DNA from: Candidatus Rokuibacteriota bacterium | GTDB taxonomy: Bacteria; Methylomirabilota; Methylomirabilia; Rokubacteriales; CSP1-6 | Direction of reading: 5' to 3' | NCBI GenBank assembly: GCA_016184305.1 | Contig: JACPCX010000119.1 | Span: 1 to 26,531 of the forward strand | Length of the DNA stretch: 26,531 bases | Shown: piece after piece, positions 4,343 to 14,523 of the stretch | Layout of the letters: each line of letters begins with the position of its first letter | Numbering within the stretch: position 1 is the first letter of the stretch | Notes under the pieces: generated by a model | What the model was told of the DNA's origin: nothing | Seen by the model: only the letters and a program-made list of their open reading frames with translations | Database searches by the model: none | Made by a program: the position numbers and the translations under genes

Positions 4343-5596
4343 TCAGCCGGCGTCGCGGTAGGGCTCGAGCGGGCCGAGCAGACGCGGCGGCAGCTCGACC
4401 TCGAGCCGGATGCCGTCGGGCTCGTCGGAGCGCGCCAGGACGCGCCCGCGATCGTAACAGAGCGACAGGGCCAGGCCATCCCGGTAGGGGATCCGCAAGA
4501 CCGCCCGCTCCACCCGGCCGCGCAGCGCGCTGTCGATTCGATCCAGCAGGCGATCCATCCCCGCGCCGGTGTGCGCCGAGATGGGGACGCCGTCGAAGCG
4601 CTTGACCAGCATCCGCGGCGGCGCGCCGCCTTCCAGCTTATCGATCTTGTTCAGCGCCACGACGGTCGGGCGGCCCACCAGCCCCAGCTCGGCCAGGAGG
4701 CTCTCCACCGCCGCTGCCTGCTCCTCGAGACCCGGATGGCTCGCATCCAGCACGTGGACGAGCAGGTCGGCTTGCTCCAGCTCCTCGAGCGTGGCCTTGA
4801 ATGCCTCCACGAGCTGATGCGGCAGCTTCCGGATGAACCCGACAGTGTCGGTGAGGATGAACGGCGAGTGCTCCCCGCCGGCGACGAGCCGGGCCGTGGG
4901 GTCGAGGGTGACGAAGAGCTGGTCAGCCGCCGGCCGGCCGGCGCCCGTGAGCCGGTTGAGGAGCGTGGTCTTCCCTGAATTGGTGTACCCGACGAGCGCC
5001 ACCACCGAGAACCCCGTCGCCTTCCTCCGCTCCCGCACGCGACGGCGGTGGGAGCGTACCCGCCGGAGCTCACCCCGGATCTTCTCGATGCGGTGGCGGA
5101 TGATGCGCCGGTCGGACTCGAGCTGCGTCTCCCCTGGGCCTCGGGTTCCGATCCCGCCGCCGAGCCGCTCCAGGTGCTTCCACTGCCTCACGAGCCGCGG
5201 CAGCAGGTACGATAGCTGCGCCAGCTCCACCTGGAGCTTGCCCTCCATGCTGCGGGCCCGCTGGGCGAAGAGGTCGAGGATGAGAGCGGTCCGGTCGATG
5301 ACCTTGAGGCCCAGCGACCCCCCGAGGTTCCGCTCCTGCACGGGAGACAGCGGGTCGTCGGAGATCATGAGGTCGGCACCGTGCTGGCGCGACCATTCCC
5401 GGAGATCCTCCACCTTTCCCTTGCCGAAGTACAGTGCCGGTGTCGGCGCCTTCCGCTCTTGCGTGACGCGACCCACCACCTCTGCCCCGGCCGACTCCGC
5501 CAGCCGCTCCAGCTCGTCCAGTGACTCCTCCACCTCGAAGCGCCGCTGGGTCGGGAGCCGGACGGCGCCCAGCACGGCTTTCTCGCGTCCGGTCAC
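4343..5596 (-). CDS. hflX: GTPase HflX
   Basis: LKVIDRTALILDLFAQRA, EGKLQVELAQL, GGGIGTRGPGETQLE, G1 GYTNSGKT, LFVTLDPT, DTVGFI, NKID. Start placed at GTG 5596, which forms a GTGA overlap with the miaA stop and has AAGGAGG upstream. Confidence 0.96.
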   Translation of the reverse strand: MTGREKAVLGAVRLPTQRRFEVEESLDELERLAESAGAEVVGRVTQERKAPTPALYFGKGKVEDLREWSRQHGADLMISDDPLSPVQERNLGGSLGLKVIDRTALILDLFAQRARSMEGKLQVELAQLSYLLPRLVRQWKHLERLGGGIGTRGPGETQLESDRRIIRHRIEKIRGELRRVRSHRRRVRERRKATGFSVVALVGYTNSGKTTLLNRLTGAGRPAADQLFVTLDPTARLVAGGEHSPFILTDTVGFIRKLPHQLVEAFKATLEELEQADLLVHVLDASHPGLEEQAAAVESLLAELGLVGRPTVVALNKIDKLEGGAPPRMLVKRFDGVPISAHTGAGMDRLLDRIDSALRGRVERAVLRIPYRDGLALSLCYDRGRVLARSDEPDGIRLEVELPPRLLGPLEPYRDAG

Positions 5597-6579
5597 TCGA
5601 TCAGTCCCTCCTTCGTCAGCTGCTGCGCGATGGCGTCGGCGGCTCCGTCGAGCCCGCCGAGCGCGTCCACGTTGATCCACCGGATCTCCGGGTCCCGGGC
5701 GAACCACGTCATCTGCCGCTTCGCGTAGCGCCCGGTGTCGCGGATCATGAGACGGATCGCGTCCGCCTCCGGCATCCGTCCCCTGACCACCGCGCAGAAG
5801 TGGCGGTAGCCGATGCCGCCCATGGCCGGAAGCGTCTCGGCGAAGCCGGCGGTGAGGAGCCGTCTCACCTCCTCGATCATCCCACGGGCGACCATACCCT
5901 GCACGCGATCCGCGATCCGGCGGCGAAGGATCTCGCGCGGCTGGCAGAGGCCCACCATGACCAGCCTGAAGGGGGGAATCGCGGTCGCCCAGCTACTCAC
6001 GGGGCGCCGCTCCCCGGCGCGGCCCTCCGGGCTCCCCGCGAGCGCGATCTCAAGAGCCCGGATGACACGCACGCGATCGTTCGGATGGAGGCGGTCGGCG
6101 GCAACGGGATCGTGCTCGCGCAGCCGGCCGTGCAGCACCGCCGAGCCCTGGGTGCGCCCCATGGACTCGAGCTCCCGCCGGAGGGCGGGGTCGGCCGCCG
6201 GCGCCGGGTCGAGTCCCTTGAGGAGGGCGCGCACGTAGAGGCCGGTGCCGCCCACCACGGCTGGCAGTCGACCCCGGCCCCGGATCTCGGCGAGGGCGCG
6301 GCGGGCGTCGTTGCGGAACCGCGCCGCGTGGTAGCGCTCGTGCGGCTCCACGACGTCGATGAGGTGGTGGGGCACCACCCGCAGCTCGTCCGGCGAAGGC
6401 TTTCCGGTGCCGACGTCCATGCCGCGGTAGACCTGGCGCGAATCGGCGCTCACCACCTCGAGCGGTATCCGGCCCGCGAGGCGCACCGCGACGGCGGTCT
6501 TGCCCACTGCCGTGGGCCCCACGATGACGAGCAAGGGGGGCTGCGGCTCGCCGCCTCGCTCCGCTCGGGGGATCTCCAT
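5593..6579 (-). other. miaA: MiaA moiety; possible independent internal start at ATG 6579 (328 aa)
   Basis: Complete IPP-transferase motifs. ATG 6579 has GAGG 9 nt upstream, within the repeat element. Confidence 0.85.
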
Positions 6580-8412
6580 GTCCGCTCGCCTCGGCGCGCG
6601 TTGCGCTTCCTCGGTCCATCGGCTCGGCTCGCCTCCGGCTGCGCCTCGCACTGCGGGCTGCGGCTCGCCACCTCGCTCCGCTCGGGGGATTTCCATGCGG
6701 CGGATCTCCCGAAGGGACAGCCGCGAGACGACGGGCCGGCCATGCGGGCAGAAGTAGGGCTCCTGCGCTGCGGAGAGGTCCAAGATCAGGCGCCGCATCT
6801 CCTCCCGCTCCAGGGGCGCCGGCGCCTTGATGGCCGCCCGGCAGGCGACGAAGGCCAGCGCCCGGTCGAGGAGCGGGCCCTCGGCTTCTCGTCCGGGCGC
6901 GGCCACTTCCTCGATCATCCGCTCGATGAGCCGCCTCGGCTCCCGGCCGCCGAGGAGCACCGGGACGGAGCGGAGGAGCACCGTGGCGCCGCCGAAGCCC
7001 TCGAGTGCAAACCCGAGACGCTCGAGCGTTGGCGCCCACTCGGTGAGGAGCGTGGCGTCGGCTGGCGCCAGGTCGAGGGGCTGGGGAAAGAGGAGCTCCT
7101 GGGCGGGAAGGGCGTCTCCCGCGAGGTCGGCCCGCAGCCGCTCGAACAGCACCCGCTCATGGGCCACGTGCTGGTCGATGAAGAAGACCTCGTCGTCGCT
7201 GGCCGATACGATGAACGTGTCCTGGACCTGCCCGACGACCTCGCCGAACCGATCACCGGCCGGCGGTCGCGCTTCCTCCATGAACAGCGCGCCCTGCCCC
7301 CCGGAGACGCCTGCGCTCGCCCAGACCGGCTCGGTGCGCTGCGCCGCGCCACCGGCGGCGCCGGCGTCCGTCCAGGAGGGCGGCGCGGTGCCGAGTCCCT
7401 GCTGGTGCTGGACCACGGAAGCGGAGCGCAGGGCGTCCTGCACGGCGAGGAAGAGCATCTCCTGGATCACCCTCGGGGATCTGAACCGAACCCAGGCCTT
7501 CGTCGGGTGGACATTGACGTCCACCTCCTGTGGGGGGAGCGCGAGCGACACCACGGCGGTCGGGAACTGGTCCCGCGCGAGCAGCGGCCGGTAGGCGTCG
7601 ACGAGCGTCTGCGTCAAGAGCGAGTCCCTGACGGGGCGTCCATTGACGATGAGCGTGATCGCGTCGCGGCTGCCCCCGGCCGCCTGGGGAGGTGCGACGA
7701 GACCGGCGAGCGTGATGGAATGGTCGGCCCGCGCCACGTCGAGCATCCGGCCGGCCAGCTCGTAGCCATGGAGCGCACCCACACGGTCGCGGAGCGTGGC
7801 TGCCCTCGGCGCCGCGAGCAGCGGCTTGCCGTCGTTCGCCACGTGGACGTGGATCTCCGGATGGGCCAGCGCGATCGCCTGGAGGAGGCGGAGGATCATG
7901 GCGAGCTCGGCGCGGGCCCCCTTGAGGAACTTGAGCCGACCCGGCGTGTTGAAGAACAGGTCCGCGATCTCCACGGTGGTGCCGGGCGTGGCGGCGACAC
8001 TCATCGGCGCTCCCGCGGTGCCGCCTTCCCCCCGCACCAGGGTCCCCGCTGCGGAGCCCCGCGGACACGACAGGAGGGAGAAGCGGCTCACCGCGCAGAT
8101 GGCAGGCAGTGCCTCCCCCCGGAAGCCGAGGGTCTGGATGGCGTCCAGATCCGCCTCGTCAGCGATCTTGGAAGTTGCATGGCGCAAGAGCGCCAGGCTC
8201 ATTTCCTCCGCCGTCATCCCGATCCCATCGTCCAGGATACGCACGAGCTGCCTGCCCGCATCCCGGAGCTCCACGACGACGCGCGCGCAGCCGGCGTCGA
8301 TGGAGTTCTCGACCAGCTCCTTCACCACGGATGCCGGCCGCTCGACCACCTCGCCGGCGGCGATCTTGTTCACCAGGTGGTCGGGCAGCCTGTGAATGCG
8401 AGGACTATTCAT
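5593..8412 (-). CDS. mutL-miaA: Fused DNA mismatch repair protein MutL - tRNA dimethylallyltransferase MiaA (939 aa, single frame)
   Basis: ATG 8412 forms an ATGA overlap with the mutS stop. MutL motifs: NKIAAGEVVERPASVVKELVENSIDAG, HATSKI, GFRGEAL, DVNVHPTK, DQHVAHERVLFE, ACR, CPHGRP. With no intervening stop, MiaA motifs follow: GPTAVGKT, SADSRQVYRGMDVGTGKP, PHHLID, VGGTGLY, RYAKRQMTWF. Confidence 0.9.
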   Translation of the reverse strand: MNSPRIHRLPDHLVNKIAAGEVVERPASVVKELVENSIDAGCARVVVELRDAGRQLVRILDDGIGMTAEEMSLALLRHATSKIADEADLDAIQTLGFRGEALPAICAVSRFSLLSCPRGSAAGTLVRGEGGTAGAPMSVAATPGTTVEIADLFFNTPGRLKFLKGARAELAMILRLLQAIALAHPEIHVHVANDGKPLLAAPRAATLRDRVGALHGYELAGRMLDVARADHSITLAGLVAPPQAAGGSRDAITLIVNGRPVRDSLLTQTLVDAYRPLLARDQFPTAVVSLALPPQEVDVNVHPTKAWVRFRSPRVIQEMLFLAVQDALRSASVVQHQQGLGTAPPSWTDAGAAGGAAQRTEPVWASAGVSGGQGALFMEEARPPAGDRFGEVVGQVQDTFIVSASDDEVFFIDQHVAHERVLFERLRADLAGDALPAQELLFPQPLDLAPADATLLTEWAPTLERLGFALEGFGGATVLLRSVPVLLGGREPRRLIERMIEEVAAPGREAEGPLLDRALAFVACRAAIKAPAPLEREEMRRLILDLSAAQEPYFCPHGRPVVSRLSLREIRRMEIPRAERGGEPQPAVRGAAGGEPSRWTEEAQRAPRRADMEIPRAERGGEPQPPLLVIVGPTAVGKTAVAVRLAGRIPLEVVSADSRQVYRGMDVGTGKPSPDELRVVPHHLIDVVEPHERYHAARFRNDARRALAEIRGRGRLPAVVGGTGLYVRALLKGLDPAPAADPALRRELESMGRTQGSAVLHGRLREHDPVAADRLHPNDRVRVIRALEIALAGSPEGRAGERRPVSSWATAIPPFRLVMVGLCQPREILRRRIADRVQGMVARGMIEEVRRLLTAGFAETLPAMGGIGYRHFCAVVRGRMPEADAIRLMIRDTGRYAKRQMTWFARDPEIRWINVDALGGLDGAADAIAQQLTKEGLIE
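6538..6697. repeat. In-frame repeat element linking mutL and miaA: two 43-bp direct repeats (6538-6580, 6655-6697) flanking a related 74-bp spacer
   Basis: The copies are 41/43 identical and offset by 117 bp (39 codons); each encodes MEIPRAERGGEPQP. Core motif CCTCGCTCCGCTCGGG; GGCGAGCCG occurs three times on the minus strand. Confidence 0.92.
6697..8412 (-). other. mutL: MutL moiety (~572 aa): GHKL ATPase, linker and C-terminal endonuclease domain
   Basis: ATPase motifs, clamp-binding-like QELLFP, and endonuclease motifs DQHVAHERVLFE, ACR, CPHGRP. Confidence 0.93.
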
Positions 8413-12813: not shown

Positions 12814-14523
12814 CTAGTCCTCGTCGTCGAAGTCGTCGCCCCCCCGCCGCTTGCGTGCCTTCCCCCGGCCGCGGGTGTCCTGCTGCTGCGGCTCCTCCAG
12901 GATCGCCGCCGCCAGCTCTTTCAGCGACAGCCCGATCCGACGCTCGGTGGGGTCCACGCGGATCACGAGCAGGGTGAGCTCGTCCCCGACGTTGACGATC
13001 TCCGCAGGCGACGCGATGGGCCGGCTGGACATCTGGGAGATGTGCAGGAGGCCGTCCACGCCGGGCTCCAGCTCCACGAAGGCGCCGAAGTCGGTGAGGC
13101 GGACGACCTTGCCGGTCACCCGCGAGCCCATGGGGTAGCGCTGGGAGACGCTCTCCCACGGGTCCGGCTGGATCTGCTTGAGGCCGAGAGAGATGCGCTT
13201 GTTCTCGCGGTCCACGTTGAGGATCTGCGTCTCGATGGCTTGCCCCTTCTTCAGGAGCTCCGAGGGGTGGCCGATGTTCCGGGTCCAGGACATGTCGGAG
13301 ATGTGCAGGAGGCCGTCCACGCCGGGCTCCAGCTCCACGAAGGCGCCGAAGTCGGTGAGGTTGCGCACCTTCCCCTGCACGCGCAGCCCGGGCTTGTACC
13401 GCTCGTCGATGCTGGACCACGGGTCGCTCTCCACCTGCTTCATGCCCAGAGAGATGCGCTTCGTGGCCTTGTTGACGTCCAGCACCTGCACCTCGACGGT
13501 GTCTCCCACGTTGACGAGCTTCGAGGGATGGCGTACCCGCCGCGTCCACGACATCTCCGACACGTGCACGAGGCCTTCCACGCCGGGCTCGAGCTCGATG
13601 AAGGCGCCGTAGTTGGTGAGGCTCACGACTCGCCCGGCGACCTTTCCGCCCACCGGGTAGCGCTCGTCCACCGTCGCCCACGGGTCCAGGGACTTCTGCT
13701 TGTACCCGAGGGAGACCCGGCCCGTTTCCCGGTCGAAGTGCAGCACCACGACCTCGACCTGGTCCCCGACCTGGAAGATCTCCGAGGGGTGGCCGATCCG
13801 CCCCCAGGACATGTCGGTGACATGCAGCAGGCCGTCGATGCCCCCGAGGTCGATGAAGGCCCCGTAGTCCGTGATGTTCTTCACGGTCCCCGTCAGCGCC
13901 ATGCCTTCGCTCAGGACGGCCAGGGTGTGCTTCTTCTTCTCCTCGCGCTCCTCCTCCAGCACGATCCGTCGCGAGAGGACGACGTTGCCCCGGCGGCGGT
14001 TCAGCTTGATGACCTTGGCGCGGATCGTCTGCCCCACGAGGGCGCCGAGGTTCTTCACCGGGCGCAGATCCACCTGCGACCCCGGCAGGAAGGCGCGCAC
14101 GCCCACGTCCACCGCGAGGCCGCCCTTGACCACCTCCACGACGCGGCCCTCCACGGGCGTTCCGCTGTCGTACGAGCGCGAGATGGCGTCCCAGACCTTG
14201 ATCTTGTCCGCCTTGTCCTTGGAGAGGACGATCAGGCCCTCGTTGTCCTCCTTCGCCTCGAGGTAGACCTCGATCTCATCGCCAACCTTCGGGACCCCGG
14301 TGTGCCGGAACTCCTCGATGGCGATGGTGCCCTCGCTCTTGTAGCCGATGTCCACGAGCACCTCGCTGCCGCGCACCTCGACGACGAGCCCGCGGACCAC
14401 CTCCCCTTCTTCGATGTCGTTGCTGCCCTTGGCGAACCACTCCTCCATCGTCTCTTCCCGGGTCTCTCCCACCTCCCTCTGAGTGGCCGTGGGGCCCTGC
14501 GCCTTCTGGTTATCCGTCTCCAT
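12814..14523 (-). CDS. rpsA: 30S ribosomal protein S1 (six S1 domains)
   Basis: DIGYKSEG, RAFLPGSQVD, repeated (D/N)(Y/F)GAF..L..G.(D/E)GL.H.(S/T) motifs; AAGGAGG upstream. Confidence 0.98.
   Translation of the reverse strand: METDNQKAQGPTATQREVGETREETMEEWFAKGSNDIEEGEVVRGLVVEVRGSEVLVDIGYKSEGTIAIEEFRHTGVPKVGDEIEVYLEAKEDNEGLIVLSKDKADKIKVWDAISRSYDSGTPVEGRVVEVVKGGLAVDVGVRAFLPGSQVDLRPVKNLGALVGQTIRAKVIKLNRRRGNVVLSRRIVLEEEREEKKKHTLAVLSEGMALTGTVKNITDYGAFIDLGGIDGLLHVTDMSWGRIGHPSEIFQVGDQVEVVVLHFDRETGRVSLGYKQKSLDPWATVDERYPVGGKVAGRVVSLTNYGAFIELEPGVEGLVHVSEMSWTRRVRHPSKLVNVGDTVEVQVLDVNKATKRISLGMKQVESDPWSSIDERYKPGLRVQGKVRNLTDFGAFVELEPGVDGLLHISDMSWTRNIGHPSELLKKGQAIETQILNVDRENKRISLGLKQIQPDPWESVSQRYPMGSRVTGKVVRLTDFGAFVELEPGVDGLLHISQMSSRPIASPAEIVNVGDELTLLVIRVDPTERRIGLSLKELAAAILEEPQQQDTRGRGKARKRRGGDDFDDED

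Follow-up and report, generated by a model that had tools for sequence, protein, structure and literature searches.

A Rokubacteria repeat family resembling mycobacterial interspersed repetitive units, with empty and filled alleles at mutL/miaA and a MutL-MiaA fusion that is very likely an assembly error

[quoted passage not shown] In this work we analysed a window of 26,531 nucleotides, which is one contig (C30) of a draft Candidatus Rokuibacteriota genome (G000; 3.2 Mb, 70% GC), and in which a repeat element is assembled at 6538..6697 inside a minus-strand ORF of the gene run mutS-mutL-miaA-hflX. Our reading, to which we assign a probability of about 0.7, is that this miaA element is one locus, variable in copy number, of a MIRU-like family that belongs to this genus of Rokubacteria, likely forming a harmless N-terminal extension of MiaA, and that the mutL-miaA fusion of the assembly is very likely an error. 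The comparison was made by behaviour, not by sequence homology; on that basis the MIRU is the closest working model, and the family is best called MIRU-like rather than a Rickettsia palindromic element (RPE) or a repetitive extragenic palindrome (REP). It probably allows ribosomes to continue into the gene that follows, as has been described for MIRUs in mycobacteria.

The features of the locus are listed below, where L245 and L246 are metagenome assemblies, X5 is a sequencing run and P0011 is a protein.

6671..6696, minus strand: 26 bases of repeat where the 22 nt of the true mutL end belong (from read contigs and metagenome alignments).
6553..6669, minus strand: 117-bp unit, 39 codons with no stop in the frame of miaA; found in L245 and missing from L246, X5 and P0011.
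6655..6669, minus strand: left direct repeat of 14-15 bp (GGCGAGCCGCAGCC), which in the true sequence directly follows the GTGA stop/start overlap.
6538..6552, minus strand: right direct repeat of 14-15 bp, the one copy that the empty allele retains.
6577..6579, minus strand: internal ATG at which public gene calls (cluster members) start a 328-aa MiaA beginning MEIPRAERGGEPQP.
6697..8412, minus strand: mutL, 571 codons present; its last 6 codons and stop are absent in the assembly.
5593..6537, minus strand: core of miaA, tRNA dimethylallyltransferase (Pfam IPPT, E 7.5e-80; named cluster members).

As assembled, one minus-strand ORF joins MutL, the repeat and MiaA, and a reading made earlier from the sequence only had proposed that the element fuses the two genes. 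The junction was read from Logan contigs of the best-matching runs X1-X4, which belong to one study and are possibly the source, and of run X5 from another study. In all four of X1-X4, the contigs were identical to mutL as far as 6697, after which they gave E-L-R-R-T-W-stop and the left end of the repeat, with a depth of 0 over 6682-6689. The X5 contig spanned miaA to mutL across the same normal mutL stop, and runs X6 and X7, with no contig bridging the junction, were uninformative. Of five metagenome matches to the mutL end, three (L247-L249) were by chance and were dropped, and both homologous assemblies, L245 and L246, had the normal mutL stop. Hence the window's junction was seen in none of the contigs of these five runs or the two homologous assemblies, and a search of the whole assembly for 16 nt of the true mutL end gave 0 matches. 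At 27 of 29 miaA loci of relatives, mutL lay directly upstream and ended in Trp-stop, the other two loci being broken or mis-joined inside the array; the mutL contig of the related genome G001 carried on with normal E-L codons. The 90% cluster of the window's fused protein, whose named members are Candidatus Rokubacteria or NC10, holds a 578-aa MutL ending ELRRTW; among the 40 of 63 members read, 15 were listed, namely the fused 939-aa protein deposited from one contig and 14 separate MutL or MiaA proteins. A true mutL-miaA fusion was rejected because mutL ends normally in the contigs of X1-X5 and in L245 and L246. These comparisons make an assembly or gap-filling error at 6671..6696 very likely, and such an error would have created both the fusion and the greater part of the first "43-bp repeat", neither of which would then stand. 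In a literature search of titles and abstract starts, with subscription journals outside its coverage, no paper on a natural MutL-MiaA fusion was found.

A real junction, in which repeat-mediated conversion would have removed the mutL stop in a rare strain, would agree with the ORF that is open in the assembly and with the deposited protein, and stop-removing joins resembling it, perhaps artefacts too, exist at the G003 ferredoxin and G001 fabD genes. Nevertheless, we consider it highly improbable given the zero support in the contigs of five runs and in both homologous assemblies, the lack of homology at the window's mutL-repeat junction, and the different chimeric join that G001 has at the same array. 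In this G001 join (L012, G001:C136, about 1290-1500), an array following another gene, presumably of the TIGR02757 type, is joined to the unit before miaA, and G001 mutL stops at a contig end. The joined gene sits in G000 on contig C142 beside its own array. The G001 join is probably a second chimera at the same repeat. The G003 ferredoxin end (L230) and the G001 fabD end (L218) run straight into mid-unit, the former with a short shared word at the join and the stop lost; both are either real deletions or further assembly errors. Since the G000 assembly contains just 4 N and no contig end in repeat words (0/478), further gap-closing errors at repeats are possible in this genome. Truncated nested copies were observed at G000:C187:13631, C8:5469, C10:3179, C215:55686 and C133:2321.

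With an assembly error as the preferred account of the join, the true locus can be described from its relatives. L245, 97% identical at the mutL end, contains one 117-bp unit between two 14-bp direct repeats, and a GTG overlapping its mutL stop reads in frame through the unit into MiaA and lengthens it by 39 residues. L246 (with 100% identity over the mutL end), run X5 and protein P0011 lack the unit, and in them the same frame gives a short start; L246 and X5 are possibly one population. Copy number at miaA thus varies between strains (0 or 1 unit), in agreement with the tandem variation of MIRUs; the duplication at this site is 14 bp and not 4. Public gene calls mostly place the MiaA start at the ATG within the unit. 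At the same site G003 has a related 48-bp array, also in frame, and G002 has an array with in-frame stops in which a GTG is supplied at the array end. What is new at the mutL/miaA locus is the disproof of the fusion together with clean empty and filled alleles, which are therefore usable to test whether repeat-borne frames keep translational coupling.

Several properties had been attributed to the element from its assembled letters. Both 43-mers are in the assembly (6538-6580 and 6655-6697, 41/43 identical, 117 bp apart); the description as a 43-bp repeat with two synonymous differences holds for those letters, but the real direct repeat is 14-15 bp, and one of the differences falls in the spurious bases and the other at their edge. 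The word GGCGAGCCG does occur three times across the whole 160 bp, but just once in the spacer to which it had been assigned. Purine richness of the minus strand (62.5%) was confirmed, as was the lack of TAA, TAG and TGA in six frames over 160 bp, within a stop-free stretch of about 6526-6756. This property was shared by 279 of 19,975 genome tiles of 160 bp (1.4%) and by 6.6% of base-shuffled copies of the element, the latter because its purine strand has just 7 T in 160; from these rates, six-frame stop-freedom is modest, and mildly unusual at most. Four GNA triloops were counted against 1.2 in dinucleotide shuffles (p=0.028); GCG-CAA-CGC, which had been named with the mini-hairpins, has no GNA loop.

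In order to describe the family, G000 was searched with a profile of a 60-bp unit, which gave 79 matches at 64 loci and 0 in the reversed genome. The expected dispersed family does exist, relatives carry it too, and a single copy or local tandem duplication was rejected on these counts. Strands were never mixed within a locus (0/64), and arrays were head-to-tail only. [quoted passage not shown] The filled MITE measures 179-184 bp, and a strict motif count gave 34 empty and 26 filled loops (examples at G000 C46:15247-15368 and C109:4411-4593). The MITE has CTAG-type ends, and its terminal inverted repeats resemble those of DUF772-transposase insertion sequences (ISs) in relatives, where the end motif was found at 13 of 30 such loci, three of these 13 carrying it as pairs about 1.3 kb apart. 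The host therefore appears from its ends to be IS-derived, and the nested copies evidently spread along with it; the free unit differs from its host in having no terminal inverted repeats. No DUF772 match was obtained in G000-G002, and two long spans between end-like motifs in G000, considered as an autonomous MITE partner, held ordinary genes. In Porphyromonas, a bacterial MITE that encloses a minisatellite is known, according to the available part of PMC4596501.

The family was present in 3/3 congeners and in three other genera with at least 20 matches each, and any match was found in 20 of 41 genomes. A strict whole-unit pattern matched 4 of 151 class genomes; it missed most known copies and says little on range. 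Unit periods were mostly 52-66 and 117-123 bp, with 22 instances of the 117 type counted in four genomes, and the unit number at sucC was 2 in one and 3 in the other of G000 and G001. Phage and plasmid collections gave no match to the unit, and literature searches, with subscription journals outside their coverage, found no description of the family.

The sequence-only reading had spoken of insertion in genes; most free copies lie at gene junctions instead. Among the 30 free G000 loci, 19 were in sense orientation between co-oriented genes, 3 were sense in ORFs (one being the artefact), 5 were antisense, 2 convergent and 1 divergent. In a sample of 100 free copies, mainly from four genomes, both neighbours had the orientation of the unit in 62 and the opposite one in 5, and 26 had no gene call on at least one side; for G001-G003 the 58 regions came from best-scoring matches rather than from every copy. 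The sense strand at co-oriented junctions is the purine-rich strand. This intercistronic location is shared with MIRUs.

We then scored coupling as a strict stop-to-start chain (spacing -1, -4, -7 or -8), leaving aside the window's site, the G001 chimeric miaA site, four in-gene copies and two arrays with N runs. Of the 36 sites that are purely intergenic, 18 showed such a chain, in 10 cases as a mini-ORF and in 8 as an N-terminal extension, compared with 11 and 5 in controls frameshifted by +1 and +2 at the same sites (p=0.0014); with one site per orthologue group the median was 12/26 (p=0.008). For reference, chaining in the genome was seen at 70 of 484 junctions with 60-300-bp gaps and at 673 of 1340 short junctions. 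Another 18 sites have an upstream gene that extends into the repeat, and 11 of them end on a strict overlap, a signal that is weak with orthologues pooled (p about 0.1). Small ORFs overlapping their neighbours are a feature shared with MIRUs, from which the family departs in using three modes: C-terminal extension, N-terminal extension and mini-ORF. Where the stop stands 3 nt ahead of the first GCGAG, all 11 sites carry a start at -4 (1058 of 2653 gene stops, or 40%, in the background), the overlap word being labelled "DTGA", and all 8 left ends with a 1-nt gap follow GTAG. The 16S 3' end was not found in the assembly.

Filled and empty sites were also compared elsewhere. At sdhB/sucC, one GTGA overlap in G007 corresponds to RTGA at both insert ends in G000 and G003, likewise in G001. 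At kdsA/kdsD, one TGATG in G006 corresponds to a five-codon bridge in G002 and G003, which the unit extends in G000 and G001. An overlap rebuilt on both sides may thus be shared with MIRUs at some sites (RTGA at sucC, TGATG at kdsD); at miaA, a 14-bp repeat brackets the unit in its place. The linker of pyruvate dehydrogenase E2 (pdhC) holds two in-frame units in G000 and G001 (G000:C18:32864-32979, L134; L237), which start at codons V-R-A-A-A, resembling the unit's left end, and are absent in G002, G003 and G007; by this comparison the pdhC copy appears to be a true in-gene insertion. At the kdsA N-terminus, an antisense copy is in frame from a GTGA start and differs in length between G000 and G001 (L125, about 698-800; G000:C168:14706-14797). 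The in-frame copies at pdhC (sense) and kdsA (antisense) support the earlier proposal that coding sequence can accommodate the element in several frames and in either orientation. In some relatives, unrelated GC-rich hairpin inserts occupy the sucC, fabG and miaA junctions (L204, L222, L034), so the same junctions attract several repeat families.

In order to see whether the unit is a classical palindrome or an RNA family, standard folding was applied. The unit's RNA fold did not surpass those of shuffles (z +0.9), each of 200 shuffles folded at least as well as the unit when treated as DNA (z +2.75), its longest Watson-Crick hairpin was no better than in shuffles, and Rfam gave no match at gathering score, the weak matches lying far under family cut-offs. 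With no folding signal, both candidates were rejected, and the RPE/REP-like palindrome first suggested did not survive the folding and hairpin tests. When tandem G·A pairs were allowed, the purine strand of the real part formed a hairpin of 12 pairs, a number that 1 of 500 shuffles attained, and the opposite strand did not form it; across copies such a hairpin was found on the purine strand in 90/98 and on the other strand in 35/98. Two hairpins are predicted in the window:

6622..6649, minus strand: hairpin 1, with two tandem G·A blocks, a GGC/GCC stem and a GCC-GGA-GGC triloop tip; predicted on the purine strand only, with covariation.
6554..6568, minus strand: hairpin 2, CC-GA-GC-GGA-GC-GA-GG; predicted on the purine strand only, with covariation.

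Among 209 layouts, the middle pair of hairpin 1 was C-G in 137 cases and G-C in 49, where about 118 would be expected if the positions were independent, and its loop is G-N-A with N varying (62, 42, 18). The flanking pairs of hairpin 2 were complementary in 171/178 cases against 94 in partner shuffles, and its loops were GGA or of the GNRA type, with GNA triloops in 119/178. The proposal that the family carries GNA-loop hairpins was therefore upheld, with covariation of these hairpins, which would provide a partly independent check on the G·A pairing. In the available part of PMC10085684, GNA triloops and also CGAG blocks, with their sheared G·A pairs, are described as DNA motifs that are stable.

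These structures bear on two alternatives. A selected RNA element, that is, a structured intercistronic RNA for mRNA stability, processing or ribosome loading, would account for the sense bias and the covariation, and it would fit the G·T wobbles kept in stems and the five tetraloop variants, all of which fit GNRA. We regard it as unlikely, considering that the commonest loops are GNA triloops, a DNA motif, that neither standard RNA folding nor Rfam gave a signal, and that the unit is absent at the miaA site in near-identical strains. The other alternative, about equally unlikely, places the unit among non-autonomous elements of single-strand DNA such as those of the REP or IS200/IS605 type, in which an HUH (Y1) enzyme would recognise the G·A/GNA hairpins and insert after TGA-N or GTAG, with coupling as a by-product of target choice. 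Insertion by HUH enzymes does not normally generate direct repeats; the filled sites bear them. Hairpins on one strand only, the stable DNA motifs just mentioned and the stereotyped left ends (11/11 after DTGA at 3 nt, 8/8 after GTAG at 1 nt) would suit such an element, and GTAG feet mark REP families in the available text of PMC3733652. Yet no unit lies near any of the 20 Y1 loci taken from this genome family, the own Y1 gene of G000 is flanked by a different repeat, and G003, G006 and G008, all of them drafts, hold the family with no Y1 match. The nearby Y1 or REP-associated tyrosine transposase (RAYT) once suspected thus found no support, as none of the 20 Y1/RAYT loci was flanked by the unit in these draft genomes, in which absence is unproven; a GIY-YIG nuclease was not found among the 12 window proteins scanned, no genome-wide search for it having been made. 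A more specific form of this idea, in which paired DNA-type hairpins (tandem sheared G·A, GNA loops) unseen by standard folding would mark a single-strand mobile element delivered by some enzyme to TGA stop/start overlaps, is likewise doubtful; if true, it would supply the mechanism of spread that is missing for MIRU-like repeats, and make these findable by structure across bacteria.

The Y1 gene of G000 (L242, G000:C13:33258-36581) is flanked by another repeat family with GGGGTCAGGTCTTGCA ends, the core word of which has about 39 copies in the genome.

For the MIRU-like reading, we propose that units would be gained and lost through recombination or slippage between short direct repeats, and that new free sites would be seeded by homology-guided insertion at short look-alike words and at stop/start overlaps. 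Selection would then retain copies whose T-poor, stop-poor sequence allows ribosome passage, by C-terminal extension, N-terminal extension or a bridging mini-ORF; at miaA, a unit on the mutL/miaA stop-start overlap is predicted to be read through into MiaA. Several points weigh against this reading. No mobilising enzyme was found for the free copies, which is the situation described for MIRUs too, and no tetranucleotide overlap is rebuilt at the right end of the miaA site. Half of the intergenic sites (18/36) lack a strict chain, and the +1 control is frequent (11 strict; 23 against 29 observed under lenient scoring). Just 23 of 43 unit periods are divisible by 3. Moreover, genes and starts were called with the analysis' own codon model, copies and genomes are related to each other, the G·A scoring scheme was picked after the sequence had been seen, and the main compensatory swap may reflect a single or few ancestral events. 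As for the junction, contigs drop rare variants, so that a rare rearranged strain might hide.

The family was also set against the other described systems. With RPEs it shares in-frame additions to housekeeping proteins (here the pdhC linker and the kdsA and miaA N-termini), but RPEs, in the available parts of PMC10969869 and PMC3733652, are palindromes of about 150 bp with a stable hairpin, lie within genes and encode a conserved peptide, whereas here a long palindrome and a single conserved peptide are lacking, most copies are at junctions, and the in-frame cases are a minority spread over several frames and both strands. With the GTAG REPs and bacterial interspersed mosaic elements (BIMEs) that accompany RAYT it shares short hairpin units, clustered arrays and the GTAG directly before 8 copies (PMC3733652, in the part available). 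That foot would be expected on >90% of units in a GTAG REP family, compared with 8/26 scored left ends here, and the family is further set apart, by description, by arrays that are head-to-tail only, G·A-dependent stems and no RAYT flanked. From MIRUs, the family differs in its phylum and in having tandem G·A hairpins on one strand instead of GC-rich inverted repeats.

Collectively, a MutL-MiaA fusion, very likely false, that was already in public protein collections is now removed, and arrays of the family emerge as a cause of chimeric joins in draft Rokubacteria genomes. The family would be the counterpart of MIRUs in a second phylum, with empty and filled alleles that are clean, and its one-strand G·A hairpins would offer a concrete handle on the spread of such repeats.

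The mutL product of the window had Pfam matches to HATPase, DNA_mis_repair and MutL_C. A further G000 repeat (L296-L299; C164, C168:56415, C181:30945, C85) has a GATGAG-stem-CGAAG layout, which gave no Rfam match at E 0.5 and which we take to resemble a hammerhead core. Two other repeats in the window are ordinary: those of 261 bp (13017-13879) correspond to S1 domains of ribosomal protein S1, and those of 516 bp (1739-2364) to the two GTPase domains of EngA/Der.

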